Source: an uncultured Actinomycetes bacterium
GTDB taxonomy: Bacteria > Actinomycetota > Thermoleophilia > UBA2241
Assembly: GCA_963725665.1 (NCBI GenBank)
Contig: CAVRZA010000006.1
Location: 320,001 to 384,000, forward strand
DNA length: 64,000 bases
Direction: 5' to 3'
The notes under the pieces are model-generated. The model searched no databases. It saw only the letters and a list, made by a program, of their open reading frames with translations, and was not told the origin of the DNA. The position numbers were made by a program, and so were the translations under genes. Below, piece by piece: positions 73 through 27,028 of this stretch (its first letter is position 1; every line of letters starts with the position of its first letter).

Positions 73-1350
73 TCATGACTCCCCCCACACAGTTCGCGGG
101 TCCACCGCCGTCTCGAGCATCGTAAGGGCGCGCTCGACCAGGCGGCGGCGCAGCGCCACCTCGTCGGCCCGGTTCTGCTCCGGATCACCCACGGGATTGG
201 TGATGGCCACGCCGCGCACGATGCGGTTGGCGCCGACCATGACGGCTATCGTCGGCAGGGCCGTGATGATCACTGTCGGTATCCCGGCTCGTTCCAGCTC
301 TTTGGCCAGCGTTGCCCCGCAACGCGTCCCCGTTCCTCAGGTTCCTGTGAGCAGCACAGCGTTGATGTGCGCCTCGTGCAGCTCCTGGGCGATCTCCTGC
401 CCGAACTTGGCCGCCGTGGCCACCGGCGTCGAGTTGCCGGTCGTCGTGTAGAAGACGTCGTGCAGCCGTCCGATGCGACCCTCGCGCTCCAGCACCCGCA
501 CAACATCAAGCGGCACGAGCCGGTTGGGATCGGCGTTCGCGACGCCGACATCGTAACCGCCGTGCACCGACTCGAACTCGCCCGCGCGCAGAGAGTCGAC
601 GTCCCTCAGCGAGTAGCGCAGCCACTTGTGCGCGCGGTTCGACTCGAGATGGTCCGGATTGCCCTGCGGGACGCACCCGGCCTCGCTCACCAGCGCCAGC
701 ATAGCAGTGCTCAGATCGGCCACAGGGGCCGGCGGCGGCACGAGGTCTCGCGGTGCTTCGACCTCCGTGTATGTCTTCCCCTCGAGCTTCGCCAGGAGCA
801 TCTCGACGGCGCGGGCTGCGCCGGGCAGCTCGCAGAGCTCGTTGCGGCGCAGCCCGCGCGGCAGGTAGCCCTCCTCGGCCGGTCCGCCGACCGGTTCGCG
901 GGTTCCGAGGCGGCGAGCCAGTGACGCCATCTTGGGCAGTGTGTCGCGCATGGCTGCCACGCGCGACCCGGTCGGCACGACGTACGCGGCGCCCTCGGCG
1001 GCGAGTACTCCCGGGCTCTCCGGCTCCATGCCGCAGACCGCAGGGATGCCGCGACGCGCCGCCTCACGGGCCAAGACGCCGCAGGCGTAGCCGTAGCGCC
1101 CGGAGCCGAACGAGGGTCCGCAGACGAGCACGTCGGGGCGCTCGGCCTCGAGGTGGCGCAGCAGCGTCGCCAGGGCCGTCTCTTCGTGCTCGCCGAAGTA
1201 ATCGTCGCCGCAGGCAAGCGTGGCCGCCACCTCAAGGCCGAGCGCCCGGCCTGGCCCAACGGCACCCTCGAGTCGCAACGGCGCCATACCGGCAGAGTCC
1301 TCACCGCCGAAGCCGGCGAAGAACTGGTTGAGGTAGTGAACGACTCTCAC
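73..1350 (-). CDS. grdB: Glycine/sarcosine/betaine reductase component B selenoprotein subunit (in-frame TGA = Sec at 337-339)
   Basis: N-terminus MRVVHYLNQFF; ORFs 337..1350 and 73..273 are in the same frame and joined by one TGA: LLTGT-U-GTGTRCGATLAKELERAGIP...GANRIV, matching the GrdB-family C-terminus; hairpin 11 nt after the UGA. Confidence 0.92.
309..325 (-). promoter_or_regulatory. Putative bacterial SECIS element
   Basis: mRNA reads UGA + 11 nt + GCGUUGC-GGG-GCAACGC (7-bp stem, G-containing loop). Confidence 0.75.
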
Positions 1351-1359
1351 GATGCGACC

Positions 1360-2655
1360 TTACGCCGGAGCCGCGCGCACGCGCATGTCGCCCGTCTGAG
1401 ACAGTGAGCCCAGATAGCTCACCAGTGGCAGCGGCCGGGGTTCGCGTGCCGGCTGCGCGTCGAGCATGACATCTCCCCCGATGACCTCGACGGGCTCCCA
1501 TTCGGCTACCAGTTCCTCCTCGTTGCCCACGCTCACGATGGCGTCGGCCTCAGGTACGTGGTCGGTGAGACCGGCGTTGGTCTCGGCTACCAGCATGACC
1601 GTGCGGATTCCGAGACGCTCACAGGCGCGGCAGGTCAGCATCGTATCGGTGTGCGAATTGCCCGACGAGAACGTCGTGAGGATCGCCCCTTCGGCGCCCA
1701 GCTGCTGGCCCAGCTTGGCCGCCATCATGGCCATACGTTCCTTCTCGAAGGCCGAGGGCAGGTAGGCCAGCGTGAGCACCACTCCGCGAAGATCGACATA
1801 GGATCCGTGCGCCCGCAGAAGCCTCAGAAGGAGATCGCTGCGCTGGTAGAAGTGCGTTGGGTTGCGTACGCCTGCCCAATCGTACTGGCCGGCCGTCAGC
1901 GCCCCATCGAGGACCTCCCGGGGATCTAGCACAGTCGCGACAGCGCCCTTGAGCGAAGCTCCATAGAAGTAGGTGTCCACCAGGGGGCCCTCGGCCGCGA
2001 CCTGAAGGATCACGCACACCCGGGGCATCTCGCCCGACACGTCACCCCAGTGCAGCACCTCGACATCGCCGGGAACCACCTCCGCCGGCACCTCCGCCGC
2101 CAGGGCTCGCGCGAACGCAAGCGTCACCCGTCGCAAGGAGCGGTCGACGTCTGCTAGCTGCACTGTCGGATCACAGCGGAACGAGAGGACGACGTTCTGC
2201 GTCGCCGACCAGTGCGAGAAGGCCGCCCCCGGGCCGCCCATGTCGACGATAGAGTCTCCGTCGGGAACGACGTCGAGGGCTGTGACATCGTGACTTGCCC
2301 GCAAATCGGCCGTTGCGAGCACCGCCACCCCCGAGAGACGCCGAGTCGGTCCGATGCCGACGGGCTTCAACGTTCCCAGAGCGCCGGGAAACGTGGCCTC
2401 TGGCTCCGCGGTCTTGAGCGCAGGCTCCACTGCATCGAGCACGTTGAGCAGACGGACTGGGTCTCCTGGTCGAACGACGCTCAGACGCACCTCGAGGATC
2501 CCGGGCAGGCCCAACCAGAGCGGCTCGAGCGAGGCTTCGCTCACCGTCAGACGGCCGTCTTCCCAGGCCGTGCTTGACCCCTGGACGAGCCCTCCCACGG
2601 CGTGCGAGCTTATCTCGAGAACGGAAAGTCGGTCTTGAGTCACGGTCTGTCGCAT
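1360..2655 (-). CDS. Glycine/sarcosine/betaine reductase component B alpha/beta-type subunit (GrdE/GrdI-like)
   Basis: Motifs DAVEP, FPG, IVDMGGPGAAFSHWSATQNVV, P.EVLDGA, GAILT..GNSHTDTML.C; ends 9 nt upstream of grdB. Confidence 0.85.
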   Translation of the reverse strand: MRQTVTQDRLSVLEISSHAVGGLVQGSSTAWEDGRLTVSEASLEPLWLGLPGILEVRLSVVRPGDPVRLLNVLDAVEPALKTAEPEATFPGALGTLKPVGIGPTRRLSGVAVLATADLRASHDVTALDVVPDGDSIVDMGGPGAAFSHWSATQNVVLSFRCDPTVQLADVDRSLRRVTLAFARALAAEVPAEVVPGDVEVLHWGDVSGEMPRVCVILQVAAEGPLVDTYFYGASLKGAVATVLDPREVLDGALTAGQYDWAGVRNPTHFYQRSDLLLRLLRAHGSYVDLRGVVLTLAYLPSAFEKERMAMMAAKLGQQLGAEGAILTTFSSGNSHTDTMLTCRACERLGIRTVMLVAETNAGLTDHVPEADAIVSVGNEEELVAEWEPVEVIGGDVMLDAQPAREPRPLPLVSYLGSLSQTGDMRVRAAPA

Positions 2656-2660
2656 TCCAT

Positions 2661-2761
2661 GTCGATAGTCGACAGTTTACAGACTATGGCCTTTGGCGAG
2701 CAGGGTCAACGGACTTCTTGCAGACCGAGGATAGAGTCGCTGCCGACGGTTGACTGTCGAC
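2661..2761. promoter_or_regulatory. Putative GntR operators in divergent promoter
   Basis: GTCGAT-A-GTCGAC-A-GTTTAC (2661-2680) and GTTGAC-T-GTCGAC (2749-2761); related motifs at 7502, 9489 and 16931. Confidence 0.6.
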
Positions 2762-2816
2762 CGAAGCGGCCGTAGCGTACGCACCGAACAGCATCGAGGA
2801 CCGTCAGGAGGCGTCG

Positions 2817-3245
2817 ATGGACAAGTGCCGGAGTCTGTACGCCGCGATGGCAAAGCTGCGCGCCGGCTTCAAGGCCGACGTGGTGAACATGTGCGTCGAG
2901 GAGAACGCTCAACAGCGCGACGGGTATCCCGTCGAGTACACGCTGGCCGGGGAGGGGCAGCTCTTGTGGACGTGCGGCTACGGGATCACGTCGACCTGTC
3001 GGAATCTCGACGCCGCCCACGCGCTGCTGAACTACTACCTAAGCCCCCAAGCGGAAGCCTTCGAGGCCAAGCAGTGGAACTACATGGTGACCAACGAGGA
3101 GACCCTCAAGGTAGTGAGCGACGAGGTGCGCAAGAAGGCGCGCCTGGATCAGGCATACGACCTGGGGAACGCCCTGCCCGCCGCGCCGCCGGCGCAGGGG
3201 TACCCCAACTGGGTCCGCGCCTGGGAGGACTTCAAGCGCTACTAG
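2817..3245 (+). pseudogene. Internally deleted paralog of the polyamine-type ABC substrate-binding protein at 9561
   Basis: AAMAKLRAGFKADVVNMCVEE is joined directly to EGQLLWTCGYGIT...GNALPAAPP; no signal peptide and the middle of the protein is missing. Confidence 0.8.
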
Positions 3246-3255
3246 GAAGGTCGGC

Positions 3256-3723
3256 GTGAGGGCCAGCCTGCTCGCGACGATCGGGTCGGCCCTCGCCATC
3301 GTCGCCGCCTCGGTGGCGCTCGGCCTGCTGACAAACGCGGCGTCGTCGAGCGGGCTGCCTCTCCGTGCCGAGCGAACGGAGCCGATCGGCGTCGTCACAC
3401 TCGGCGAGGCGCGGGCAGCCTTCCTCGACGACGCCGCCCAATTCGTCGACGCCCGCTCCGCCGAAGCGTTCGCCGAGAAGCACATCGGCGGGGCACTCAG
3501 CGTGCCCTTCCTGCAACGCGAGCGTCTCCGCCCGCGGTTGGCCGGAGCGGTGCCCCGCACCCGCCGCCTCATCGTCTATTGTGATGGTCCTGCGTGCGGG
3601 CAGGCCTCCGAGCTCGCGACCTGGCTGCGCAGCCAGGGGTGGCGCCACGTCGGGGTGTTCCTCGACGGTCTGCCCGCGTGGCGCCAGGCAGACTACCCCA
3701 TGGCGACGGGCGGCGAGCCGTGA
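3256..3723 (+). CDS. Rhodanese-like domain protein with N-terminal membrane/signal segment
   Basis: FVDARS..F...HIGGALSVP, VYCDGPAC active-site loop, LDGLPAW. Confidence 0.85.
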   Translation: MRASLLATIGSALAIVAASVALGLLTNAASSSGLPLRAERTEPIGVVTLGEARAAFLDDAAQFVDARSAEAFAEKHIGGALSVPFLQRERLRPRLAGAVPRTRRLIVYCDGPACGQASELATWLRSQGWRHVGVFLDGLPAWRQADYPMATGGEP

Positions 3724-4181
3724 AACGGCTTCTCGGCAGCAGGCACGTTCCCCTGGTGGCGAGGCTCATCCTCGGCGCGCTCTTCATATACGCCGCCTAC
3801 GACAAGGTGCTCGACCCGCGCGCCTTCGCCGACGCGATAGACAACTACCGCCTCGTGCCTGATGGCCTCGTGAACACGGTGGCCGTCGCCCTCCCCTGGA
3901 TCGAGGTCGCAGTGGGCGCCTGCCTCCTGCTCGGTGTCCTTGCGCCCGGCGCCGGGCTGCTCGCAGGGTGCCTGCTCGCAGTCTTCACGTTCGCCTTGGT
4001 CAGCGCCCTCGTGCGCGGCCTCGACATCCGCTGCGGCTGTTTCGGCCTCGAGGGCGGCGCGGCGATCTCGTGGGTCGACGTAGCCGTGCGTATCGCGCTC
4101 CTGGCGCTGTGCGTCGAGGTGGTCACGGCGAGTCACACCATCGACTGGCCGACGGCCGTGCTCGAGCGCCGGCGCAGCTAA
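3720..4181 (+). CDS. MauE/DoxX family redox-associated membrane protein
   Basis: RLILGALFIYAA, LPWIE, GLDIRCGCFG; GTG start overlaps the rhodanese stop. Confidence 0.85.
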   Translation: MKRLLGSRHVPLVARLILGALFIYAAYDKVLDPRAFADAIDNYRLVPDGLVNTVAVALPWIEVAVGACLLLGVLAPGAGLLAGCLLAVFTFALVSALVRGLDIRCGCFGLEGGAAISWVDVAVRIALLALCVEVVTASHTIDWPTAVLERRRS

Positions 4182-4245
4182 GTACGGCGACCGCCGGGGA
4201 CCGGCGGCCTGCGAGGGCCGCGGCTTCGGCCGACGCTGGCACGCG

Positions 4246-5394
4246 TCAACCGGGCGCCGCGATCCTCGTCCGCGAGACCTGCTGCTCGGCGACGGCGTCC
4301 TCGTCGAGCTCCACCCCCAACCCCGGCTTCTCGGGGATGCGCAGTAGCGACACGCCGTCGATCGTCTCTGTCTCGAGGCCCGTGGCAAGATCGCGCGCGA
4401 AGTCCCCTCCCCTCCACGGCGGGTCTGTGTCGCTCGATATCGCGTTGGCCAGGGCGGCGTGCAGGTGGACGACAGGCGCTGTGCCGACGGTGGCGTGACC
4501 CATGTTGCCGACGTGGACTCCCACTCCGGCCGCCTCGGCGATCGCGTTCACCTTGAGAGCGCCGAGGATGCCGCCAGTCTTCATCAGCTTCACGCTGATC
4601 AGGTCGCAGGCTTCGGCACGCACTGCGGCGAGCGCCTCACGTGGACCGCGCACGCTCTCGTCGAGGCACAGAGGGACTTCCACACGCGTCCGTACTCTCC
4701 GGGCGCCCTCCAGGTCCCCGGCGCGCAGCGGTTCCTCTACGAACGCCACCCCATGACGCTCCAGTCTCTTGATGCCCGCCACGGCGCGATGGACGGTTCT
4801 CCATCCCTGATTGGCATCGACGCGTATCTCGGCGCCGGCGCCGACAGCGTCGCGCAGCACGGCCACGAGCTCCAGCCGCTCGTCGCGGAGCTCGCGCTCA
4901 TCGCCTGGGCACAGGTAGAGCTTGAAGACCCGAATCCCAGCGCGCCGAAGCGCGGCGGCTCGGGAGGCAAGAGCCTCCGCCGGCTCGTCGCGGTCGAGTG
5001 GGCAGGCTTCGTGGATCACCCTCCCGTAGAGACCGCCCAGGAGCTCGTACAAGGGCCGCCCGAGAGCCTTTCCCTTGACGTCCCACAGGGCCATCTCGAG
5101 AGCACCGCGCGCGGCCTCGTTCCCGACTCCGGTCTCCTCCCATCGACGGGCGACGGCCTCGATGGCTAAGGGATCTCGCCCGATCAGAGCGGGAGCGAGG
5201 TGGGAGGCGATGACGGCCGTGACGGTCGCCGCCGTTTCGCCGGTGTAGGCGTAACCCGGACACGCCTCCCCGAGGCCTACGACGCCCTCATCGGTCTCCA
5301 CGCGAACCAGGACGAGCTGGCTCCAGCGCCACGCCGAGGTCTCCCGCCGCATCCTCATGCGTAGCGTGTCTGTCTCGACGCAAGTGATCTTCAT
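4246..5394 (-). CDS. Enolase-superfamily enzyme (muconate-lactonizing/epimerase-racemase subgroup)
   Basis: GLGEA, EMALWD..GK..G.PLYELLGG; metal ligands VDAN, VEEP, LDES; SVKLMKTGG. Confidence 0.85.
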   Translation of the reverse strand: MKITCVETDTLRMRMRRETSAWRWSQLVLVRVETDEGVVGLGEACPGYAYTGETAATVTAVIASHLAPALIGRDPLAIEAVARRWEETGVGNEAARGALEMALWDVKGKALGRPLYELLGGLYGRVIHEACPLDRDEPAEALASRAAALRRAGIRVFKLYLCPGDERELRDERLELVAVLRDAVGAGAEIRVDANQGWRTVHRAVAGIKRLERHGVAFVEEPLRAGDLEGARRVRTRVEVPLCLDESVRGPREALAAVRAEACDLISVKLMKTGGILGALKVNAIAEAAGVGVHVGNMGHATVGTAPVVHLHAALANAISSDTDPPWRGGDFARDLATGLETETIDGVSLLRIPEKPGLGVELDEDAVAEQQVSRTRIAAPG

Positions 5395-5506
5395 CGCACA
5401 CGACGCATCGATCAGCATCCCTCAAGCGTGCGCCTGCGGGGCGTTATGTCACGCACGCGCCGGAGCGACCGTCCGAGCCCAGGCCGGCCGGCCCCGACCC
5501 CACCCG

Positions 5507-7153
5507 TCAGAGCGAGGTCCTGCGCCGGCGCCTGTCACGCAGGACCTCACGCACGCAGTTCGTGCCGTTGGCGCCGCTGATGCCGCCTCCGGGGTGCGTG
5601 CCGGCTCCGCAAAGGTACAGTCCGGAGATCGGCGTGCGGTAGTCGGCGTAGCCGCGTACGGGACGCAGGAAGAAGAGCTGATGGTCGCCCATGTCGCCGT
5701 GCAGCGCGTGCCCGCCGGTCACGTTCCACAGCCTTTCCATGTCGAGCGGCGAGAGTACCTGTCGGTGCTCGATGGCGCCGGGAAGGTTGGGGAAGTAGCG
5801 GGCGATCTGGGCGATGGCGCGGTCGGCGACCTCGTCCTTGATGTCGTCCCAGCTCGAGCCGTCGCGCAGCGTGTAGGGCTGCGAATTCATGTCGATCGTG
5901 ACGATGTGCTTGCCCGGCGGCGCCAGTGAGGGATCGAACACGGTCGGGCAGCACAACTCCACGTGCGGGTTCTCGATGGCGGGGATGCCGGCACGCGCCT
6001 GGGCCTGGTTCAGGTCCATCTCGGTCACGGTCGAGTTGCACTCGACGATGCAGCGGTGGTACGGCTGCACGTCGCCCGGGACCTCGTTGAGCTCGTCCCA
6101 GGCCGCACGCGGCAGCTCACCGACGGCCAGGTTCACCTTAATGCTCGTGCCCTCACAGATGAAGGCGCGCAGGGCGTTGACGTAGTCCTCCGGGAGCTCC
6201 CGCTCGTCGACCATGGCGAGCATCGTGCGCTTGGGGTCGGCGTTCGACACCACGACGGGCGCCCGCACCTCATCACCGCCCTCGAGCACGACACCGACGA
6301 CGCGTCCGCACTCAACGAGAATGCGCTCGACCGTCGCCCCCGTGCGGATCTCGGCGCCGGCCTCGCAAACCGCATCGGCCATCAGGGCAGTGAGCGTCCC
6401 GATCCCGCCGCGCACGAACCCCCACTTGCGCACGCCTCCTCCGGCCTCGGAGGAGGCGAACTCGTGCAGCAGCACGTATGCGGTGCCAGGCGTCGAGGGC
6501 CCGGAGACGCTGTCGTTGATGGCGAACCACGACAGCGCGCCCTTGATGACGTCGCTCTCGAAACGCTCGTCGAGGTACTGGGCACAAGAGGCGGCGAAGA
6601 GGTGAGCGGCGCCGAGGAGCTGCTTGCGGTGACGGATGGCCGGCAGCCCGACGCGTGCGAGCCGCTCGAGGTCGGCCCAGCCGCGAATGCGAGGGTCGAA
6701 GGGCGTCACACTGAACAACGGACCGAACCAGCCGGCAAGTTCCTCCAGCTCGTCAGAGAAGCGCTGGTAGGCGCGTGCGTCTTTGCAAGACAGGGGCGCG
6801 ATCTCGCGCCGCATGTCGGCCGGGTCCTCGTGCAGGTAGAGGTGCTCGCCGCCGGCGAACAGATTGAGGCTCGGGCCGGTGGGATCCACCCGAAGCCCGC
6901 GCTCGGCCAAGCGCATGTCGCGCCAGATCGCCTCGCGTAGCATGGCGAGCACATAGGCCCCCGTCGACGCCCGGTAGCCGGGCGCGAACTCCTCGGTGAC
7001 GGCCATGCCACCGACGAACGGACGGCGCTCGAGGATCAGCACCCGCAGACCCGAACGGGCGAGGTAGAACGCCGACACCATACCGTTATGGCCCCCGCCC
7101 ACGACTATCGCGTCGTAGCCCGCTGGTGGCTGTACGCTCAGAGTCGGCTCCAT
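5507..7153 (-). CDS. Phytoene desaturase-like (PYROXD2-like) FAD-dependent oxidoreductase
   Basis: GGGHNG FAD motif, GGMAVTEE, C-terminal YRTPISGLYLCGAGTHPGGG. Confidence 0.85.
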   Translation of the reverse strand: MEPTLSVQPPAGYDAIVVGGGHNGMVSAFYLARSGLRVLILERRPFVGGMAVTEEFAPGYRASTGAYVLAMLREAIWRDMRLAERGLRVDPTGPSLNLFAGGEHLYLHEDPADMRREIAPLSCKDARAYQRFSDELEELAGWFGPLFSVTPFDPRIRGWADLERLARVGLPAIRHRKQLLGAAHLFAASCAQYLDERFESDVIKGALSWFAINDSVSGPSTPGTAYVLLHEFASSEAGGGVRKWGFVRGGIGTLTALMADAVCEAGAEIRTGATVERILVECGRVVGVVLEGGDEVRAPVVVSNADPKRTMLAMVDERELPEDYVNALRAFICEGTSIKVNLAVGELPRAAWDELNEVPGDVQPYHRCIVECNSTVTEMDLNQAQARAGIPAIENPHVELCCPTVFDPSLAPPGKHIVTIDMNSQPYTLRDGSSWDDIKDEVADRAIAQIARYFPNLPGAIEHRQVLSPLDMERLWNVTGGHALHGDMGDHQLFFLRPVRGYADYRTPISGLYLCGAGTHPGGGISGANGTNCVREVLRDRRRRRTSL

Positions 7154-7501
7154 CTCCCCCCGCTGGCACGTCGCCTGAGTCCGGTGTGCCGCCGGCGCTC
7201 CGCGGAGCGGCGGCGGCACACCCTTCGCGCGGCCACGCTAGCCGAGGGCGACGGTCCTGTCAACGCGGTGATGCAACGATATTCGTGGCGGAACCCGCGG
7301 AGAAGGGAGGCATGACGCATAAAGATGGCAGCCGTGTGGACGATTACCGTATCCTCGTACTCCGAACCAGGGCGAGGCCGGCCTCCCATCAGAGCGACGG
7401 GCCTCCCTGCACCCAGAAGCGACGGCTCGGCCCCCCGCTACGCATCTCGCGTCTTCTCCCACCCCGCCCTCTGCATTGCGCAAACGGTGGCCCGGTCTGT
7501 G

Positions 7502-7514
7502 GTAGACTGTCAAC
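7502..7514 (+). promoter_or_regulatory. Operator overlapping the -10 box (TAGACT) of a probably leaderless gntR
   Basis: GTAGACTGTCAAC ends 3 nt before the ATG; no Shine-Dalgarno. Confidence 0.55.
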
Positions 7515-7517
7515 ATC

Positions 7518-8192
7518 ATGAAGCCCCTGCAGACAAGAAGATCGCTGGCCGAAGACGCAGCCGACCGCGTGCGTGAGGAGATCCTTACCGGGGGGTTCAA
7601 GCAGGGCGAGCGTCTGGTCGAGGCGCGCATCGCTCAGGAGCTCGGCATCAGTCGGGGGCCGTTGCGCGAGGCCTTCAAGCTCTTGCGCGCCGAGGGCCTG
7701 GTGAAAGAAGAACCCAATCGCGGGACCTTCGTCGTGCGGCTCTCGGGCACCGACGTGCGTGACATCTTCGAGCTCCGCGAGGCTTTGGAGACCATGGCCG
7801 TTCGCCTGCTCGTCGACCGCGGCCGGGAATCAGGGCTGCGCGAGCTGCGCAAGCTCCTCGATCAGCTGGAGAAGGCGGCGGGCAACGGGGACGTGCGAGC
7901 CGTCTCTCGGGCCGACCTCACTCTGCACGAGGCGATCTGCCGGCTCAGCAGCAATGCGCGCCTGCACGCGGCTTACACGCGCGACTTTCCGACCATGCTC
8001 GCGCTGATCCACATCGACGACCAGCTGTACCCTTCACTTGAGGCCATGGCGCGTGAACACAGGCCCATCCTGGATGCCATCGGCGAAGGCGATGCCGATC
8101 TGGCGGTCACGCACCTCCAGAAGCACATCCGCGAGGCATCAGACCTCGTGGCGGCCTACATCGAAGCTATGCCCGAGAACAGTCCCGCCTAA
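7518..8192 (+). CDS. GntR family transcriptional regulator (FCD domain)
   Basis: GERLVEARIAQELGISRGPLREA HTH; ELREALE, FCD-type His residues. Confidence 0.92.
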   Translation: MKPLQTRRSLAEDAADRVREEILTGGFKQGERLVEARIAQELGISRGPLREAFKLLRAEGLVKEEPNRGTFVVRLSGTDVRDIFELREALETMAVRLLVDRGRESGLRELRKLLDQLEKAAGNGDVRAVSRADLTLHEAICRLSSNARLHAAYTRDFPTMLALIHIDDQLYPSLEAMAREHRPILDAIGEGDADLAVTHLQKHIREASDLVAAYIEAMPENSPA

Positions 8193-8241
8193 CTGGCCCG
8201 TCCTAGCACGGTCGCCCGAGGAGCTGCAAAGGGGGGTGCAG

Positions 8242-9518: not shown

Positions 9519-9560
9519 GGCGGGAGATGCGCCATGGGCATCGGGTGAAAAGGGGGGATC

Positions 9561-18492: not shown

Positions 18493-19896
18493 ATGCTGAA
18501 GATACGCAACTTCGAAGCACTGATCTCGCACGGAGAGACACATTCCAGGAGGGTGGTGCTGGAGATTGCCGACAAGACGCTGCGACGGCTGGACGCATAC
18601 AGCAGGATAGGGAGCATCGCGCACCTAGACGGGTCTTCCCTGCACATCGGGACACGGACTTGGGACCTCTCGAAAAAGAGGCATGTGTACCTCGTCGGCG
18701 CCGGAAAGGCATGCAACGCGATGGCTGCCGCGCTCGACGAGATCCTCGGCGACAATCTCAGCAAGGGGATCGTGATCGTCAAGGTCGCGGAGGAGGCAGA
18801 CGTCTTCAGGCACACAGACGTCTACGTGGGTGGGCACCCACTGCCCAACCGGACGGGCTACGAGGCCTCTCTGAAGATCCTGGAACTCGCGGACCAAGCG
18901 GGGCCCGAGGACCTATTCATTGCAGTGATCAGCGGGGGGAGCTCAGCTCTGATGAGCTGTCCGGTCCAGGGAATCTCAACACAGGACGAGATAGACGCAA
19001 CAGATGTTCTGCTGAAGTCCGGGGCCGGCATCTATGAGATCAACGCGATTCGACGCCACATATCGCAGACGAACGGCGGCATGCTGGCTAAGAGAATCCA
19101 AGCTTCCGGTGCTGAGCTGATCGGCTTTGGTATCTCCGACGCTGTCGGGAACCCGCCGACGGGCGACATCGGAATCCCGTGCCGGAACTACGCAAGCACG
19201 CCGATCGGTCCCGATAGGACTACCATTGCTGAGGCCCGGCGCGTCATCGCCGACTATGACTTGGCTGATCGGCTGCCCCCCAACGTAGTCCGGTACCTCA
19301 TGGAGGCAGGTGAGGCTTGCGAGACGCCCAAGGCATTCCCGGACAACACCTATTATCTGCTTAACACCGTGCCCGATTCGTGCATCTACGCAAGAGAGGT
19401 GGCGGAGGAGATGGGGATCCCTGCCTACATCCTGACTTCCTTCCTCGAGGGTGAAGGCAAGGATGCCGGCACCCTCTTCGCCTCGCTTGCCCGTGAGGTA
19501 CAGGCCTACGGAAACCCCTTCCCCGCACCGTGCGTTATCCTCAGCAGCGGGGAGACGACGACGAGGATCCTGGAGAACTCCGCTGTTGAAGGGCACGGGG
19601 GACCATCGCAAGAGCTCACCGCGAGCTTCGCGATCAGCGCCACGAAGGCTCCCGGGGTGTGCATGTTGTCGGTGGACTCGGAGGGAACTGACGGGACCAC
19701 AACCGTGGCCGGCGGGCTCACTGACTCAAGCAGCTACGAGGCGGCCATGAAGAATGGTGTAAGCCTGCATGCCGCGTTGCGGGGTCACTTCTGCTACGAA
19801 GCATTGGAGGCTATCGGCGACACCGTGATCACTGGCAACACGGGAACGAATCTCTGCGATTTCAACATTCTCTACGTCCCGACTCTTGAGAACTAG
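18493..19896 (+). CDS. Glycerate 2-kinase-like protein (MOFRL family)
   Basis: GAGKA, GGHPLP, ISGGSSAL, SGETT, DSEGTDG, TGTNLCD. Confidence 0.88.
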   Translation: MLKIRNFEALISHGETHSRRVVLEIADKTLRRLDAYSRIGSIAHLDGSSLHIGTRTWDLSKKRHVYLVGAGKACNAMAAALDEILGDNLSKGIVIVKVAEEADVFRHTDVYVGGHPLPNRTGYEASLKILELADQAGPEDLFIAVISGGSSALMSCPVQGISTQDEIDATDVLLKSGAGIYEINAIRRHISQTNGGMLAKRIQASGAELIGFGISDAVGNPPTGDIGIPCRNYASTPIGPDRTTIAEARRVIADYDLADRLPPNVVRYLMEAGEACETPKAFPDNTYYLLNTVPDSCIYAREVAEEMGIPAYILTSFLEGEGKDAGTLFASLAREVQAYGNPFPAPCVILSSGETTTRILENSAVEGHGGPSQELTASFAISATKAPGVCMLSVDSEGTDGTTTVAGGLTDSSSYEAAMKNGVSLHAALRGHFCYEALEAIGDTVITGNTGTNLCDFNILYVPTLEN

Positions 19897-19947
19897 CCAC
19901 AGGCAGGCTTCAAGGCCAGGCCGCTCCAGGGAGGAGCAGGGTCCCAC

Positions 19948-21216
19948 ATGAAGATCGAATCTCTGCGGGCACGGCAGCTTATCGACTGCATGTGCCGGCC
20001 AATGGTCGAGGTCGAGGTCGTGACGGAAGGAGGATTCGTCGGCAGAGGCGCAGCGCCTACCGGCCAGTCCGTGGGGATGCACGAGGCCTTCGTGCTGCGG
20101 GATAACGATCCTGACGTGTACAACGGGCTCAGCGTTCACCGGGCGGTAGAGAACGTCCGGCACGTAATCGCGCCGGCCCTGATCGGGATGCCGGTCGACG
20201 ACCAACGCGCCCTCGACGACCTGATGATCGCCCTCGATGGGACAGAGAACAAGAGCAACCTGGGCGGTAACGCCATCTACTCGACCTCGATCGCCTGCCT
20301 CAGGGCTGCTGCTGCCGCCGCCGGTCTGCCCCTCTATCAATATCTCGGGCGGGAGCGTCTCAAGACGGTTCCAGTACCAAGTTTCAACATGGTGAACGGG
20401 GGACGATACCGCGACTTCGTACAACCGTTCAATGAGTTCATCGTCATGCCCTACAAGGCAGAGTCCATCTTTGAAGCGGTGGAGATGGCGGTCGATCTCT
20501 TCGACGTGATGTCTGGCGTTCTAGAGGAGCACCTCGGATCGTCTCCGAAGGTGGCGCGCTCCTATGGCTACGTTGCGCCGTCTGAGGATCCTGAAGTCGT
20601 CCTTTCGTTGATGCAGGAGGCGATCGATCGCTGCGGGTACGCGGACAAGATGGCCTTCGCCCTCGACTGCGCCTCGAGTGAGATGTACGACAGCGCGACC
20701 GCGACCTACTACCTCAAGGGGGGGCGGGTTGGCACTGACGAGCTGATTTCCTACGTCAAGGACCTGACCGAGACGTTCAACTTGGTGTTCGTGGAGGACC
20801 TCCTGGACGAGAACGACTGGGACGGCTATCCACGTGCCGTGAGGCAGATTCCCCGCACCATCATTCTTGGAGACGACCTCATCGCTACGAACCTGGCGCG
20901 TCTTCGGAAGGCGACAGCCATGGGGGCGATCGAGGGATTTGTCTTCAAGCCCAATCAGATCGGGACGATCTCGGAGGCCTTGGAGACCTATGAATACGGG
21001 GTCGCACACAACCTCGTCGCAGTCCCCTCTGGGCGCTCGGGCGGTGTTGTCGATGACGTGGTCATGGACCTATCGGTCGGACTCCAGGTTGCATTTCAGA
21101 AGAACGGCGCGCCACGGTCGGGAGAGCGGATCGAGAAGCTCAACTTCCTCATGCGTGCTGCTGACTCAATTCCTGACTGCTCCCTGGCAGATGTAGTCAG
21201 CATCGTGAAGTTCTAG
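19948..21216 (+). CDS. Enolase-like protein with a non-canonical active site
   Basis: KSNLGGNA, LDCASSE, VEDL, GDDL, KPNQIGT, RSG; several catalytic positions are altered. Confidence 0.85.
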   Translation: MKIESLRARQLIDCMCRPMVEVEVVTEGGFVGRGAAPTGQSVGMHEAFVLRDNDPDVYNGLSVHRAVENVRHVIAPALIGMPVDDQRALDDLMIALDGTENKSNLGGNAIYSTSIACLRAAAAAAGLPLYQYLGRERLKTVPVPSFNMVNGGRYRDFVQPFNEFIVMPYKAESIFEAVEMAVDLFDVMSGVLEEHLGSSPKVARSYGYVAPSEDPEVVLSLMQEAIDRCGYADKMAFALDCASSEMYDSATATYYLKGGRVGTDELISYVKDLTETFNLVFVEDLLDENDWDGYPRAVRQIPRTIILGDDLIATNLARLRKATAMGAIEGFVFKPNQIGTISEALETYEYGVAHNLVAVPSGRSGGVVDDVVMDLSVGLQVAFQKNGAPRSGERIEKLNFLMRAADSIPDCSLADVVSIVKF

Positions 21217-21502
21217 TGCCGCGACTAGATCTCGTGCCCCCCGCGCAGCGTACCCACCCTGTGGCGCAAACGCCTGGCTTGGCTTCTCCGACAGGGGAGC
21301 CGTCCTCGCCGATCGGGTGGTGGCCGCCGCCATCCTGAACTGCCTCTTGCACCACGCCACCGCGGTGAACACCAAGGGCAAGAGCTTCCGCATGGGGCGG
21401 CTTCAAGATCAAATCGACAAGGAGAGAGGCGGCGCTGCTGTGGTCCAAGGGAGCTCTGCACTCTTCATGAGCGGCTCACTGCACTTCTCGTGATCGCCTG
21501 CA
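21217..21502 (+). mobile_element. IS21-family remnant (IstB C-terminal fragment and right-end repeats)
   Basis: From 21281: GFSDRGAVLADRVVAAAILNCLLHHATAVNTKGKSFRM, resembling IstB AILDRLLHH..KG.SYR; repeated CTGCACT..TGA.CG units at 21456-21497; TG...CA ends (left end tentative). Confidence 0.7.
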
Positions 21503-21584
21503 GCCGCGGCTCTGGTACTCGGCGCAGCCAGTGGAGAGTGGTCAGCGCCACCTGGCCCACCAGGCCGCTCGCACACAACGGGCC

Positions 21585-21821
21585 TGCGCGCTCTTCACCG
21601 ACTCGGATGGTATCGACGGCGCGACCGACGCGGCGGGGGGCCTGGTCGACGACCTCACCGTGCGCGAGGCGGGCGAGCGCGGCGTCGATATCGGCGCGGC
21701 CCTGGCCGCGCACACCTCGAAAGACGCGCTCGCCCGCCTCGCCGATCTCGTCCTCACCGGCCCCACCGGCACCAACGTCAACGATATGAAGATCCTGCTG
21801 AAGGCCGCGGCAGCGCGTTGA
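21585..21821 (+). pseudogene. 3' remnant of a glycerate kinase (MOFRL domain)
   Basis: TDSDGIDGATDAAGGLVD...TGPTGTNVND; 5' part absent. Confidence 0.8.
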
Positions 21822-21863
21822 TGCCCGGGATCGGGCAGGCCGACAGCTTCGCCGAGCCGCGGA

Positions 21864-22268
21864 TCAGCCGAATCCGAACGGTCCCCACAGGTAGAAGACG
21901 ACCGCGTTCCCGACGCCCGCGGCCAGCGTCATCAGCAGCGCCACGCCTGTGATCCACGCCGATGAAGAGTGCGGCCGTCCGCGCCGGCCCGCAGCGAGCG
22001 CAAGAAGCACCAGCGCCACCGCGTCGGCGGCGCCGACGACGATGTAGATCGCCGGCGTCCAGAGGGTCCGCACCGCCTCATCCGGGTGAGCGAGGAACGC
22101 CCACAGCACGAACGCGAGCGAGGCCATGAGGATGACCAGCGCAGCCACGATGGAACCTCGGCGTGTGCGGCCGACGCGCAGGTTGTGCACGAACAGTTCG
22201 AGCGTCAGCAGCGGCCCCAGCCCGATGAGAAGCACAAGCGCGATGACGAGCACTGCGTTGCGTGGCAC
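21864..22268 (-). CDS. Hypothetical membrane protein (about 4 TM)
   Basis: Four hydrophobic stretches; GTG start after a G-rich RBS. Confidence 0.6.
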   Translation of the reverse strand: MPRNAVLVIALVLLIGLGPLLTLELFVHNLRVGRTRRGSIVAALVILMASLAFVLWAFLAHPDEAVRTLWTPAIYIVVGAADAVALVLLALAAGRRGRPHSSSAWITGVALLMTLAAGVGNAVVFYLWGPFGFG

Positions 22269-22468
22269 GGTACCCCCGTCGGTAGCCTGCGGTCGTCGGA
22301 CCCGCGAGCACTGACGCAATACTACAGGAGGCCGGCAGGGGCGACGCGAGGTTCCCCGGCCCGCGGAACGTTGGCGCCTCATGGCCCCAAGCGCCGTCCC
22401 TCGTCGCCACATGACGCAGACCGCTTATGCAGCGATGGGCACGACGTCGCCGCGCGCGCAGTGAAGAG

Positions 22469-22501
22469 GTGGCGGGCAGTGCGGGAGTTACACCCGCCTA
22501 C
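22469..22501 (-). repeat. Displaced 3' end of tRNA-Pyl (att site)
   Basis: 32 of 33 bp identical to 23701-23733. Confidence 0.9.
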
Positions 22502-22605
22502 GTGATCCAGAATCCTCCTAAACTCATAAGAGATACGGTGAGCGGGTCTTTTCGAGCCTAGAAGCGCAGATTAGGGGAGGCAAACCGGCCTGCGCTGAGC
22601 CTACT

Positions 22606-22628
22606 GTCAAACACCTCGTCAAACACCT
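22606..22628. repeat. Tandem 11-bp repeat, putative integrase arm-type sites
   Basis: GTCAAACACCT-C-GTCAAACACCT about 105 bp inside the distal att repeat. Confidence 0.55.
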
Positions 22629-23701
22629 AGACGCGCTACGCGCGGCCAGTCCGTCCCTCCGCAACGGGCAGCGGCGCTTCATCAGGGCAAGCGGCTATGC
22701 CCCGTCGAGTCCCTTAGGGGCGGCGGGAGGCTCGGCCGGGCGGCCTTGCTCGTCAGCGGGAGGTCGTCAGACGACTGGACGCTCACCTGTGTTGTCGCGG
22801 CGGGGCGTCTATGCAGTTGGAGGCGGCGTCGTCGTGACTGGCAGTCACCTGCGATTCTGCGCCCTTAGGACCAGCAGGCCTATGCCAAGCATGACCACGA
22901 GGGCGACCAGAATGATGAGGGGTCCTATGATTCCGCCTCCTATGTCCGTCGTCTTGGTCAGCTTAGCAGACGGTGGGTCATGACCGGATTGGCCCCCTAC
23001 CCGCCCGCGCCCTGGCCCCTGCGCTCACCCGTGCCGTCGTGGCGGTCGCCTGCTGGAGCCGGAGGCGGGCCGATGGTGGTGGCTATCTTCGCCGCTTCCT
23101 ATCGAGCGCGACCACGGCAGCGATGCCGGTACACAGGAGAGCCGAGAAACCAGTCGAGCCAGCCGGAGAAGACCACAGACGCCCACAGGGACAGCGCCAC
23201 GCACGGGTCCCCCTAGAGCTGCCGCCGGAGCCACGCGGGGTCAGTCTCTTTCCTGAGTAGCGACCTCGGCCCACTTGGCGTCGGAGATGACGCCCGAGGT
23301 GTCGAGTTCGCGTCGGTCCAGTTCACGCTGTTCGTCCATGTCACCTCCCTCGCGCGATGAAGCCGAGCGCGCCGCCCGCAGCGAAGGCGAGGACGCCGAA
23401 GAACGGGAGGGCGAAGATGGTCATGAGGCTATTCCACTGGGTCGTCGTTCGATGGTCATGGGGCTATTCCTCTAGGTCGCGGTTGGCATCGTCGGGCGGC
23501 GGCACGATGGGGAGCTGGATGCGGAGCCTCACGCCCACCGGGGCTACGGGACAGCGGCACCGAGGCAATCGGCGTCGGCCTGAAGATGAAGAGCTACGAG
23601 GGTTGGCCGAAGACAGCGCCGGACGAGTGGTGTCTTGAGTTCGTCGAGCAGGCGACCTGACAAAGGTAGGAGGGCGGCTGTCTATCCGCGGAGTAAGAAA
23701 G

Positions 23702-23774
23702 TGGCGGGGAGTGCGGGAGTTACACCCGCCTACATGGATTTAGAGTCCATGCTGATCTTTCCGATCGACCCCCC
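23702..23774 (-). tRNA. pylT: tRNA-Pyl (anticodon CUA)
   Basis: GGGGGGT C GATC GGAAA GATC AG CATGGA CTCTAAA TCCATG TAG GCGGG TGTAACT CCCGC ACTCCCC G CCA: one nt between acceptor and D stems, 5-nt D loop, 6-bp anticodon stem, 3-nt variable loop, no TTC in the T loop, G73; adjacent to pylD. Confidence 0.96.
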
Positions 23775-23784
23775 GCGGTGCTCC

Positions 23785-23790
23785 ATTGTA
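23785..23790 (-). promoter_or_regulatory. -10-like box (TACAAT) upstream of pylT
   Basis: TACAAT 10 nt before tRNA G1; no clear -35. Confidence 0.4.
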
Positions 23791-23828
23791 CGCCTCAAAG
23801 CAGTGACGGCCGCCATGGCGCCCCTCTG

Positions 23829-24638
23829 CTACCGCAACCCCTCGAGTGCCATGGTCACAACGCCCAGGGCGAGCGGCTCGTGTATGTGGCGCTCGCCGAG
23901 AGCGGCGGCCGTTTCCAGACCCGCCGCCGGCGGGATCCCGGGGGCCGATACGATGCTGTCCGGAGTCACCCACTCTGCGGGGATGAGGTCGCCCACGGGG
24001 GCGGCGTCGAGGACCAGGTGACTGCGGGCGAGACCCTCGGCGAGTTCTACGGGTTGCAGACCGAGCTCCCGCGACACTCGCGCGAGCCGCGCGCGGTCGG
24101 GGTCGGCGGCGAGGGCGGTGGCGCCAAGCGCCACCGCCCTCGCCGCCGCGGTGCTGCCGACCGGACCGAGGCCGAGAATCAGAACCTCCTTGCCTCGCAG
24201 GCCCCCCGCTGCGGCGTCGAGCGCGGCGAGGAAGGCGCGCCCCGTCGCCTCACCGTTGTCGGAGCACACGCCGGTCGTGATATTGAGTGCGATGAAGCGC
24301 TCCTCGTCGGCCGCGAACACAAGCCGGGCGCCAGCCTCGGCGGCCTCGGCGAGGCCGGAAATGTCCGGATGCGCGGTCACCCAGGCATCGCAGCCCACGT
24401 GTCGGCAGATGCTGGCCACCGACTCAGAGAACCCTGAGATGAAGCCCTGGCCAGCGGAGATCGGCAGAGCGACCACCGGGGCATCCCTGAGGCGTTCGTC
24501 GGCCTCGTCCGACCGCAGATCCAGCGCGTGCGCGGCGATGGCCGCCAGACCGAGCCCGGTGGCACGCGCGAGCCGCTCATCGAGCCCAGCGACGCCGTCG
24601 GGCAGCCAGCGCACGTCGTCCTCCGTCAACCTCGTCAT
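23829..24638 (-). CDS. pylD: 3-methylornithyl-N6-L-lysine dehydrogenase PylD
   Basis: MTRLT, PISAGQGFISGF, DISGLAEA, ADEERF, DNGEATG, GLGPVG, PGIP, HEPLALGV; follows pylB and pylC. Confidence 0.93.
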   Translation of the reverse strand: MTRLTEDDVRWLPDGVAGLDERLARATGLGLAAIAAHALDLRSDEADERLRDAPVVALPISAGQGFISGFSESVASICRHVGCDAWVTAHPDISGLAEAAEAGARLVFAADEERFIALNITTGVCSDNGEATGRAFLAALDAAAGGLRGKEVLILGLGPVGSTAAARAVALGATALAADPDRARLARVSRELGLQPVELAEGLARSHLVLDAAPVGDLIPAEWVTPDSIVSAPGIPPAAGLETAAALGERHIHEPLALGVVTMALEGLR

Positions 24639-24696
24639 CCGACGCCCCCCGCTCCTTTCGCGGTCCCTGCTCGAGCCGTGGACGATCCCCTGCGGG

Positions 24697-25914
24697 TCAT
24701 GGCTGTCCACCGCTCGCCACAGTCGCTGACCGAACCCCATGGGGGTTGACCTCAGGAAGCAGCCGCAACCCGCACTCCTCCGCGATGCGCGCCTCGACGT
24801 CGTGGGTGCGGCGGCGCGCCTCTGCGACATCGCCGCCGCGCACGATCAGGGTCGCCACCCACTCCCGCTCGCCCCCGTCGAAGTCCGTCATCGCCTCGTC
24901 GGCGCCGAAGAAGCCTTTGACAAGCTGCAAAGGCGGCGCGGAACCCATGACGTGCTCCCCCACCACCTGCAGCGCGTCTTCGCGGGCGCGCACGTGCTCG
25001 TAGACGACCCCGCGCAGTACGCGCCGGTTCGGTTCCGGTACGGCGCCGGTCGCGAAGGCCGCGACCAGCAGTTCGAGGAGATTGACGTCGTAAGCGTGCA
25101 GCACCGCGGCCGGCGTCTGGCTGGGAAGCCGGGCGTCGATCTCGATGACCTTCGCCTCACGTCCGGCGATCATCACCTCGACGTCCATGATGCCGCTCAG
25201 CCGCAGCTTCGCCGCAAGCCGTTCGCCGCTGTCGGCGAGCGACGCCAGCGCCTCCTCGACGACGTCCGCGTAGAACGCGTCCCCGGCAACCGGAGCCGTG
25301 ACACGCTTGCAGTCGAAGGCGTCGTCGAACTCGAGACCCGTGACCAGACACGGCACCGACCTGCCCTCGAGCGCCAGCACCTCGATGGAGAGCGAGGGGC
25401 CGGCCACGAACTCCTCGACGACGACCTCGTGGCCGGCCCGCTCGAGGTCGAGCCGGGCCTCCTCGAGCTCGCGCTCACTTGCCGCCACGCGCACTCCCTC
25501 GCTGCCGCTGGCGGCGCTCGGCTTGACCACCGCCGGCAGGCCGCACACCGGCCAGGGCAAAGGGGCCGGCACACCTAGCTCGCGCATGAGGTCGTTGGAG
25601 GCCGCCTTCGACGAGGTCACGCGATACGCCGACAGATCGAAAAGCAGCGGTACGCCGAGGTCTGGAGCGAGCCGCGCCAGCCTCTCGAGCGCCGCGTCGT
25701 CCTCACAGGCCGGCAAGACGGCGTCGCAGGAAGCCAGGAGCTCACGCGCCAGCGCCTCGTCACGCGTGACGTCGAGGAGGTGGCTCTCGGTGGCGAGGCC
25801 GGTGGCGGGACGTCCCTCGCGACGGTCGATCAGGACGGTCTCAAAGCCGGCCTTCAGGCCGAGGTAGCAGGCCTCCGTGCCCTGAAGCTTGCCACCGACT
25901 ACTCCGAGACGCAT
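24697..25914 (-). CDS. pylC: 3-methylornithine--L-lysine ligase PylC (ATP-grasp)
   Basis: VGGKLQGTEACYL, TSSK, VKPS..SGSEG, SIEV, DCKRV, EIDARLPSQTP, GEHVM. Confidence 0.93.
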   Translation of the reverse strand: MRLGVVGGKLQGTEACYLGLKAGFETVLIDRREGRPATGLATESHLLDVTRDEALARELLASCDAVLPACEDDAALERLARLAPDLGVPLLFDLSAYRVTSSKAASNDLMRELGVPAPLPWPVCGLPAVVKPSAASGSEGVRVAASERELEEARLDLERAGHEVVVEEFVAGPSLSIEVLALEGRSVPCLVTGLEFDDAFDCKRVTAPVAGDAFYADVVEEALASLADSGERLAAKLRLSGIMDVEVMIAGREAKVIEIDARLPSQTPAAVLHAYDVNLLELLVAAFATGAVPEPNRRVLRGVVYEHVRAREDALQVVGEHVMGSAPPLQLVKGFFGADEAMTDFDGGEREWVATLIVRGGDVAEARRRTHDVEARIAEECGLRLLPEVNPHGVRSATVASGGQP

Positions 25915-25936
25915 GGACCTGCCTTTCGCGGCCGCC

Positions 25937-27028
25937 TCAGACCGCGATCGAGGCCATCTGGCGCGCTTTGGTGGCGTCCACCCACTCGCCGTACTCGGCG
26001 GCGTCGGCGGCCTCGAGCCCTAGAGCCGGCAGGTGCTCGGTGACGCCGGCGACGCTACGCAGACCGGCGTCGATGTCGAGCTCCGACTGCGAGACGCCGC
26101 ACAGGCCCGACGAGGGCGGCACGAGCGAGGTGACGACGCTGGCGCCGGCCTCGAGGCGCGCCTCGAGGCCGGCGATGCCCTCGACGTCGAGCGAGGCCGG
26201 GATAAGGCGTTCGGGCATCACGAGGCGCATGCATGCGATCACGAGCTGCTCCTCGAGCACACCGACGCTCGTGAGCCCCGCGAGCGGCGTGCCCGGCTGG
26301 GGCACGAAGCTCATGACCCGCACCTGGGCGAGCGGCTGGCGGCGCATCTCGAGGATCGAGTTGGCGCGGTCGGCGAAGGTCTCACCGACGCCGATGAGGA
26401 TGCCGTCTTCGACGAGGAGGCCCGAGCGCGCCGCCGCGCTGCGCGCGGCGGCGCGCTCGTCGTAATCCTGCCGTAGCCGAAGGCGCGCGTAGAGGTCGCG
26501 CGTGTGCGTCTCCTGGTAGCATGCGTACCAATCGGCGCCGACGGCCGCCAGCTGGGCGAGGACGTCGTCGGGGACGACGCCCGGAGAGACCATGACCGGC
26601 AGGCCGACCTCGCGCCTCACCGTCGCCACGAGGTCGACGAGAGCGCTGAAATCGCGCGCATCGTGGATCAGGGGATCCTCGCCCATGGTGAGGTCGAGGA
26701 GGTGCACACCCGAGTCCGCCAGATCGCGGCATACGGCGACCACCTCAGCGACCGACTTGCGGTAGCGCGGGCTCTCGGTGTTGTCGCGGCGGTAGAAGCA
26801 GAACGTGCACCAGTTGCGGCAGTACGTCGAGAAGTAGACGAAGCCGTAGAGGAAGACGCGGTGGCCGAAGTTCTCCTCACGCGCCGCGCGCGCGGCCGAG
26901 AACACCGCCTCGGCATCCTCACGCGAATCGATGCCCAGCAGACGCTCGAGCTCGCGAGGTGCGAGATCCTGGCCGCAACGAGCGCGCTCGAGGATGTGAA
27001 CGATCTCGGGGGAGGCCGACCGGGTCAT
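25937..27028 (-). CDS. pylB: 3-methylornithine synthase PylB (radical SAM)
   Basis: YGFVYFSTYCRNWCTFC (CxxxCxxC), DLTMGEDP, MVSPG, YQET, IPASLDVEG, TSLVPP..L.GV. Confidence 0.95.
   Translation of the reverse strand: MTRSASPEIVHILERARCGQDLAPRELERLLGIDSREDAEAVFSAARAAREENFGHRVFLYGFVYFSTYCRNWCTFCFYRRDNTESPRYRKSVAEVVAVCRDLADSGVHLLDLTMGEDPLIHDARDFSALVDLVATVRREVGLPVMVSPGVVPDDVLAQLAAVGADWYACYQETHTRDLYARLRLRQDYDERAAARSAAARSGLLVEDGILIGVGETFADRANSILEMRRQPLAQVRVMSFVPQPGTPLAGLTSVGVLEEQLVIACMRLVMPERLIPASLDVEGIAGLEARLEAGASVVTSLVPPSSGLCGVSQSELDIDAGLRSVAGVTEHLPALGLEAADAAEYGEWVDATKARQMASIAV

Follow-up and report, generated by a model that had tools for sequence, protein, structure and literature searches.

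Pyrrolysine (Pyl) in bacteria is known from the textbooks as a set of patchy cases in Bacillota and Deltaproteobacteria. Among the described systems closest to the one reported here are the split pyrrolysyl-tRNA synthetase (PylRS) of the Desulfitobacterium hafniense type, and the joint use of selenocysteine (Sec) and Pyl by single deltaproteobacterial anaerobes, as told in the accessible portions of the reports on the Olavius algarvensis delta-1 symbiont (PMC1976440) and on marine sediment (PMC8318568). In this work we analysed a 64,000-nucleotide stretch of DNA, called the window below, which covers positions 320001-384000 of the 578-kb contig C6 of the genome G000 and contains a grdB-type selenoprotein gene together with pylB, pylC, pylD and a tRNA-Pyl gene. 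The window very probably derives from an uncultured actinobacterium of the Thermoleophilia lineage (a class of Actinomycetota) that genuinely decodes 22 amino acids.

Pyl in Actinobacteria has been touched on in a few reports. Two Actinobacteria were counted among 81 bacterial genomes with PylRS (PMC9630628), a count repeated in the accessible text of PMC11764691, and supplement files 2 and 3 of the former contain PylSc entries named 'Thermoleophilia_bacterium' and 'Actinobacteria_bacterium'. Actinobacteriota metagenome-assembled genomes (MAGs) from a mire express Pyl-type mttB and mtbB, the genus RBG-16-64-13 being the most active (PMC10805028); the supplements of that paper file this genus, whose name may be that of the order studied here, under Thermoleophilia. 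Sec, the pyl layout or a class-wide spread in these bacteria are not mentioned in the accessible parts of PMC9630628 and PMC10805028, nor are Actinobacteria in those of PMC8318568. A literature search outside subscription journals found no paper on order-wide Pyl or on joint Sec and Pyl in Actinobacteria. A preliminary description of this DNA had allowed that its host might belong to a lineage already well known for both amino acids; what we found is a class thinly covered in print and no account of the two together.

Pyrrolysine machinery and UAG-containing methyltransferase genes

The preliminary description had noted a complete pylBCD set and a tRNA with the anticodon CUA, in a span reaching from position 73 to 27028, whose limits coincide with the outer edges of the grdB and pylB genes. 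Both parts of this were borne out (Table 1), and ARAGORN called the tRNA as tRNA-Pyl (pylT). The two halves of the synthetase, pylSc and pylSn, were located 47 kb upstream on the same contig. All five Pyl proteins exceed the curated NCBIfam equivalog cut-offs; the genome thus has a PylRS, the lack of which had been named as a ground for giving up the idea of Pyl decoding. The best match of PylSc among proteins of solved structure was 3dsq/2zni with 337 bits, presumably the D. hafniense PylSc, and archaeal forms reached at most 219 bits. In an alignment of 18 tRNA-Pyl genes, compensatory changes were seen in 11 of the 23 pairs of the consensus fold, and ARAGORN called tRNA-Pyl in 37 of 41 related loci, a set that includes repeat scans of some genomes and two loci with the pylS side only. 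The PylD family model aligns from residue 66, so the true start of pylD is probably downstream of 24830.

Genome-wide, we found 31 matches to the MttB family, 9 to MtbB and 6 to MtmB. In 14 of these genes (5 mttB, 8 mtbB and 1 mtmB) a TAG stands at one conserved motif position, and long conserved reading frames continue past it; amber-interrupted members of all three families, a search for which had been proposed in the preliminary description, are therefore present. In alignments, the TAG falls on residue 202 of MtmB (1tv2) and on residue 334 of MttB (7xcm), which we take to be the pyrrolysine residues of these enzymes. A sixth mttB match containing one TAG (C1:36714) was rejected as a Pyl gene, its TAG lying upstream of the likely start. 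Only 5 of the 31 MttB-superfamily matches are of the Pyl type, and two full-length MtmB homologues have no TAG. The MttB set is very large for a 3.7-Mb genome and presumably includes quaternary-amine or other methyltransferases.

Selenoprotein gene grdB and the selenocysteine machinery

When the in-frame TGA is read as Sec (U), the grdB-type frame comprises 425 codons and terminates at a second TGA at positions 73-75 of the window. The Sec codon is codon 338 (positions 337-339), within the motif LTGTUGTGTRC, and is followed by a hairpin resembling a selenocysteine insertion sequence (SECIS), just as the preliminary description had stated. The product scored 432 bits against the NCBIfam model TIGR01918 of the selenoprotein B subfamily (cut-off 65). 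Orthologues of grdB were identified in 10 of the 89 species-level genomes of the order to which G000 belongs (one family, f1, with 11 genera), and the TGA is kept in all eight that are full-length. The nine orthologues that cover the hairpin site do not differ by a single nucleotide in the seven codons of the hairpin, with 0 of 7 synonymous sites varying, whereas outside the hairpin the synonymous site varies in 11 of 13 codons with an invariant amino acid; these nine come from kin genomes and the contrast is not a formal test. The invariant codons include CGT and GCA, which are unusual given the mostly G or C third positions genome-wide. Such invariance is what selection on an RNA structure would predict.

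The genes for Sec synthesis and insertion that the preliminary description had wished to see, selA, selB, selD and that for tRNA-Sec, were all found on contig C11. SelA scored 525.5 bits (cut-off 267.9), SelB 315 (242) and SelD 333.6 (125), and selD itself contains an in-frame TGA in the N-terminal motif GUASK. Three further tRNA calls of unusual length (Cys-GCA, 98 nt; Glu-CTC, 102 nt; Arg-GCG, 88 nt) were taken as ARAGORN false positives because their extra arms are unpaired, their stems weak and the DNA GC-rich.

Several observations on the grd genes weigh against the reading given here. The folding energy of the hairpin was no better than that of shuffled sequences (z = +0.25 for 81 nt and -0.34 for 45 nt), an Rfam search of the window, run with gathering thresholds, returned no match and hence no SECIS family, and the hairpin, being invariant in the nine orthologues covering it, offers no covariation. 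The grdB product also stayed under the equivalog cut-offs for GrdB (TIGR01917; 412 bits against 602), GrdF (447 against 800) and GrdH (388 against 775). Because all these substrate-specific cut-offs were missed, we filed the gene as a GrdB-type reductase and named no substrate. In addition, the reading frame of grdA shows an apparent shift by one base around codon 80. At this spot, each of two related contigs from a sediment run has one additional base, so the grdA of G000 either reflects an assembly error or is broken in a strain-specific manner; exactly matching contigs of sequencing run X1 do not cover the site.

The gene upstream of grdB is likewise of the reductase type, its product being only weakly similar to sarcosine GrdG (153 bits; cut-off 780), and the genes found directly beyond the left edge of the window are a component C beta (grdC-like) gene, a thioredoxin gene and grdA. 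Directly upstream of the grd operon we noticed genes for a MauE/DoxX-family membrane protein (window 3594-4181, plus strand) and a rhodanese-domain protein (3256-3723, plus strand). Two other places in the window where TGA separates reading frames of the same phase were rejected as further recoding; at 37420-39483 the frames are a polysaccharide deacetylase beside an acyltransferase, which are separate genes, and at 58618-60501 the two frames are two separate unassigned proteins. The remaining window content consists of gatCAB and ordinary metabolism and transport genes.

Table 1. Positions of the selenocysteine- and pyrrolysine-related features; plain numbers are window positions, and positions with a contig name (C6, C11) refer to contigs of G000
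Feature	Position	Strand	Basis and remarks
grdB-type selenoprotein B gene	73..1350	-	Pfam GRDB end-to-end match, E 2.3e-117
SECIS-like hairpin	309..325	-	7-bp stem GCGUUGC / GCAACGC, GGG loop; begins 11 nt past UGA
grdE/grdG-like component B alpha/proprotein gene	1360..2655	-	Pfam Gly_reductase, E 2.1e-72; upstream partner of grdB
Partial pylT copy	22469..22501	-	Repeat search, blastn; last 33 nt of pylT, 1 mismatch
pylT (tRNA-Pyl, anticodon CUA)	23702..23774	-	ARAGORN; only tRNA in the window
pylD (3-methylornithyl-N6-lysine dehydrogenase)	23829..24830	-	TIGR03911, 211 bits (cut-off 150.05); Pfam PylD_N
pylC (3-methylornithine--lysine ligase)	24697..25914	-	TIGR03909, 338.8 bits (cut-off 248.3)
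pylB (radical-SAM methylornithine synthase)	25937..27028	-	TIGR03910, 448.5 bits (cut-off 348.2)
Nitroreductase-family gene	27041..27697	-	Pfam Nitroreductase; upstream neighbour of pylB
grdA	C6:317951-318387	-	1.6 kb left of the window; TGA in motif CFVUTAAGAMD
pylSc	C6:296347-297081		TIGR02367, 314.6 bits (cut-off 178)
pylSn	C6:298938-299198		TIGR03912, 119.9 bits (cut-off 51)
selD-selA-selB	C11:541083-545907		Clustered on contig C11
tRNA-Sec (UCA)	C11:550041-550138		98 nt, 8-bp acceptor stem, long extra arm; 4 kb from selDAB

Distribution and descent

Within the order, PylSc was found in 82 of the 89 genomes (80 of them above the cut-off), PylD in 79 and SelA in 78. Cross-tabulation showed PylSc and SelA together in 72 genomes; PylSc had no match in 7, SelA had none in 11, and both were missing from one. 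The statement in the preliminary description that this would be an uncommon lineage for Pyl and for dual recoding therefore agrees with the literature and fails within its own clade, where the combination is common.

We also searched a class sample of 401 genomes, G000 included. PylSc was present in 73 of 79 genomes of family f1 and in 9 of 61 genomes of a second family, f4, and it was found in 0 of 260 genomes from ten other families of this sample. Eight of the nine Pyl-positive f4 genomes also have SelA. In a phylum sample, PylSc was detected in 2 of 401 genomes, namely G000 and one f4 genome, both in Thermoleophilia, and in 0 of the 369 genomes from families outside the class sample. In a quick tree of PylSc (38 rows from f1, 5 from f4 and one from Bacillota), f1 and f4 formed separate groups with a support of 99 each, and the genus labels were followed, the 9 groups requiring 8 label changes, the smallest number attainable; the joining of f4 with the single Bacillota row in this tree is a possible long-branch artefact. 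Descent within the order appears to have been vertical, because the PylSc tree follows the genus labels and the gene order is conserved. Pyl and Sec are, as judged from these comparisons, order-wide, vertically inherited and ancestral to the order, and not the property of an odd genome or of a recent transfer. Families f1 and f4 may have gained Pyl in one shared acquisition or in two separate ones.

Two genomes of genus g3 (G023 and G024; 1.7-1.8 Mb, 98% complete) have kept SelA, and neither PylSc nor PylD was found in them. This looks like loss.

The alternative that survives best, though an improbable one, is that the system is a relic, with decay under way in the pyl genes and in the methyltransferase genes that contain TAG, and with UAG simply terminating. 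One of the eight mtbB copies is indeed truncated or frameshifted, TAG is frequent as a stop in G000, and the pyl genes of one archaeon failed to restore growth and are likely non-functional, according to the accessible text of PMC12626013. Decay is difficult to reconcile with five Pyl proteins that all score above their cut-offs, with a tRNA-Pyl whose pairing has been preserved by compensatory changes, and with a TAG at the exact catalytic position in 14 genes with long conserved frames beyond it. It also sits poorly with the retention of PylSc in nearly all species-level genomes of the order and with the expression of Pyl-type mttB and mtbB by some Actinobacteriota MAGs, as reported in the part of PMC10805028 available to us.

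Cluster layout and the 43-kb split

Relatives from three genera share one gene order: an amidase gene, pylSc (plus strand), an MtbC-like corrinoid protein gene (minus), a radical S-adenosylmethionine (radical-SAM) gene (plus), pylSn (minus) and a gerM-like gene (plus), followed by pylT-pylD-pylC-pylB (minus), a nitroreductase-family gene and an aldehyde:ferredoxin oxidoreductase gene. The nitroreductase-family gene adjoins pylB across the family (loci L098, L099, L131, L132, L137 and L138). The spacing between the gerM-like gene and pylT was 22-79 bp in four relatives. Of the 46 relatives whose pylSc and pylD share a contig, 43 have a gap of at most 8 kb between the two, and the other three have gaps of 10.9, 16.7 and 40 kb. 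In G000, 43.4 kb separate the end of the gerM-like gene (C6:300339) from the beginning of pylT (343702); the entire grd operon and positions 1-23701 of the window fall within this block. A copy of the 3' end of pylT lies 1.2 kb downstream of pylT inside the block and is the sole second copy that blastn detected genome-wide. This suggests that the 3' end of pylT was the site of an insertion.

In the part of the window beside pylT (21200-23700), no long open reading frame (ORF) matches a family; the ORFs there are small and hydrophobic, and a 34-nt tandem-like repeat lies at 23416-23484. This part has the appearance of degraded or non-coding sequence bordering the inserted block.

A recent horizontal gain, in which a pyl island was acquired, for instance at a tRNA gene, and Pyl would be an accessory trait here, we consider slightly less probable still than a relic. 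The synteny of the pyl cluster and its flanks (amidase, gerM, nitroreductase and aldehyde:ferredoxin oxidoreductase genes) across the genera of the family argues against it, as does the PylSc tree, which tracks the genus labels. It is true that the 33-nt copy of the pylT 3' end is a classic integration scar, that the pyl genes are separated by about 43 kb, and that Pyl is held to have reached bacteria by transfer from archaea (PMC11764691, accessible portion). What was inserted, however, is the block between gerM and pylT and not the pyl genes, and no integrase or transposase domain was found among the Pfam-scanned ORFs of this block, a hand-picked and not exhaustive set.

The layout in family f4 differs, with pylT-pylSn-pylSc-pylB-pylC on one strand and a tRNA of 72 nt; pylD was found by tblastn in two of five f4 loci.

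The radical-SAM gene of the pyl cluster was noticed separately. In G000 it encodes 292 amino acids (C6:297996-298874, plus strand, equal to L063:11996-12874) and stands between the corrinoid protein gene and pylSn. Where intact in the relatives examined, its product is 70-75% identical, while PylSc is only 58-63% identical, and a homologue with 69-70% identity is situated about 0.1-3 kb from pylC in two f4 loci (L152 and L153). Its core resembles that of cobalamin-dependent (class B) methylases and has no B12-binding domain. A link of this gene to the Pyl system or to the corrinoid system is possible.

The genome and its host

The G000 assembly comprises 3.73 Mb in 12 contigs with 68% GC and is estimated to be 97.5% complete. 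A binning artefact, in which Sec and Pyl systems from different organisms had been merged into one MAG, is very improbable. The CheckM-type contamination estimate of 5.04%, the division into 12 contigs and the placement of the Sec machinery on C11 and of the pyl genes on C6 would all permit it. Against this, the UGA-containing grdA and grdB share the 578-kb contig with pylSc, pylSn, pylBCD and pylT, which we count as evidence for a single organism. In addition, all large contigs have a uniform GC content of 68-69%, and PylSc and SelA occur together in 72 genomes of the order that were assembled independently.

The preliminary description took the host to be actinobacterial. This finds support in two genomes of family f1 (G038 = L099 and G067 = L098), which are labelled Actinomycetota and whose records read Thermoleophilia and Actinomycetes. 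Less favourable to this placement is that the class label comes from the records of these two members of the family and not from a marker-gene tree, and that the WhiB domain (PF02467) was not found in G000, whereas a Corynebacterium control matched. The WhiB family is typical of many Actinobacteria.

UAG is still used as a stop codon

Stop codon usage was determined from a rough ORF call (at least 150 codons, high G+C at third codon positions (GC3), greedy removal of overlaps, no gene finder). Among the 2018 rough ORFs, 1127 end in TGA, 778 (38.6%) in TAG and 113 in TAA; the TAG share of about 39% rests on crude, GC3-filtered gene calls, which tells against leaning on it heavily. The median number of codons to the next in-frame stop was 49.5 after TAG, 48 after TGA and 44 after TAA, and no excess of nearby backup stops was detected behind the 778 TAG-ended rough ORFs. 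The gene for release factor 1 (RF1), prfA, scored 489.9 bits (cut-off 423). The TAG share of stops was also determined in 400-kb samples of two other genomes of one genus, and it was 34-38% in the Pyl-positive G025 and 27-31% in the Pyl-negative G024. Since the Pyl-positive relative uses TAG no less than the Pyl-negative one, TAG does not seem to have been driven down by Pyl. The TAA share was about 30% in the G024 sample and 6-7% in the Pyl-positive G000 and G025.

The tuf gene (EF-Tu) at C2:97823-99094 (plus strand) ends in TAG, and its frame continues into rpsJ (S10). Read-through would fuse EF-Tu to S10, so UAG termination must stay efficient. A SelB-like match with a TAG on C2 proved to be this tuf and was rejected as a recoded gene.

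UAG is thus ambiguous and not reassigned, because it ends about 39% of the genes, tuf among them, and RF1 is present. A genome-wide reassignment of every UAG to pyrrolysine, a code reported for archaea (cited in the accessible part of PMC13695967), is extremely improbable in view of the stop codon shares of G000, G025 and G024, the equal next-stop distances, the TAG at the end of tuf and an RF1 above its cut-off.

Discussion

The genes, their recoded codon positions, and their conservation and distribution were observed directly, and from them we infer that both Sec and Pyl are incorporated into protein. Among the sequencing runs searched, none of RNA was listed as containing the locus. In the Sec branch, selenophosphate would be supplied by SelD, itself a predicted selenoprotein, and SelA would convert Ser-tRNA-Sec to Sec-tRNA-Sec, which SelB would then bring to the UGA and hairpin of grdB and probably of grdA and selD as well. 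In the Pyl branch, two lysines would be turned into pyrrolysine by PylB, PylC and PylD, tRNA-Pyl(CUA) would be charged by the split synthetase of PylSc and PylSn, and UAG at the active-site position of the 14 methyltransferase genes would be read as Pyl in competition with RF1. The pyl cluster, normally compact, would have been split in G000 by an insertion of about 43 kb between gerM and the 3' end of pylT.

Since UAG remains a common stop, something must restrict Pyl insertion, be it regulation, context or the competing RF1, and read-through is presumably prevented in the roughly 39% of genes whose stop codon is TAG. If the order-wide reading is true, it implies that UAG decoding is confined in some way, for example through conditional pyl expression or a codon-context signal. 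A metabolic coupling of the two systems would also be possible, in which a Sec-dependent GrdB-type reductase frees methylamines for Pyl-dependent demethylation; in G000, the reductase operon is placed between the two halves of the pyl cluster.

Actinobacteria of a soil and sediment order that combines Sec with Pyl and has as many as 14 Pyl methyltransferase genes per genome would be likely consumers of tri-, di- and monomethylamine, and such methylamine use would put them in competition with methylotrophic methanogens. About 80 genomes, together with Pyl-free relatives in the same genus, make a natural sample for studying how an ambiguous UAG is tolerated. Standard gene callers will cut short all of these recoded genes. 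The PylRS/tRNA-Pyl pair from a genome with 68% GC may also be of interest for genetic-code expansion. Tentatively, and with more doubt than confidence, we suggest that this order could be the first bacterial lineage of order rank in which Pyl (82/89) is ancestral, near-universal and paired with Sec (72/89) while UAG is still a routine stop.

Family f1 resembles the D. hafniense-type system (2ZNI, 3DSQ) in that pylSn and pylSc are distinct genes, in having pylB-pylC-pylD, and in the long anticodon stem of its tRNA-Pyl(CUA). In f1, unlike that type, pylT follows pylD on one strand and pylSc and pylSn lie nearby on opposite strands with corrinoid-protein and radical-SAM genes between them, to which G000 adds the 43 kb. 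The tRNA-Pyl of G000, at 73 nt, is one nucleotide longer than that of family f4, and a Bacillota locus (L100) has one of 71 nt.

The grdB-type gene resembles the selenoprotein B genes of GrdB, GrdF and GrdH in its full-length subfamily match and in the Sec within a UGTGTRC motif, and its neighbours (grdE-like, grdC-like, thioredoxin and grdA genes) are those of known grd systems. The Deltaproteobacteria, according to the accessible parts of PMC1976440 and PMC8318568, likewise combine several Pyl-type methylamine methyltransferases with selenoproteins. Here, by contrast, the phylum is Actinomycetota, the pairing of Sec and Pyl is near-universal in an order, and the selenoprotein near the pyl genes is a GrdB-type reductase, whereas formate dehydrogenase is stressed in the available text of PMC8318568. 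We conclude that these are known systems in an under-described lineage; new are the pairing of Sec with Pyl throughout the order, the unusual conserved cluster layout and its disruption, the 14 Pyl genes and the high use of TAG as a stop.

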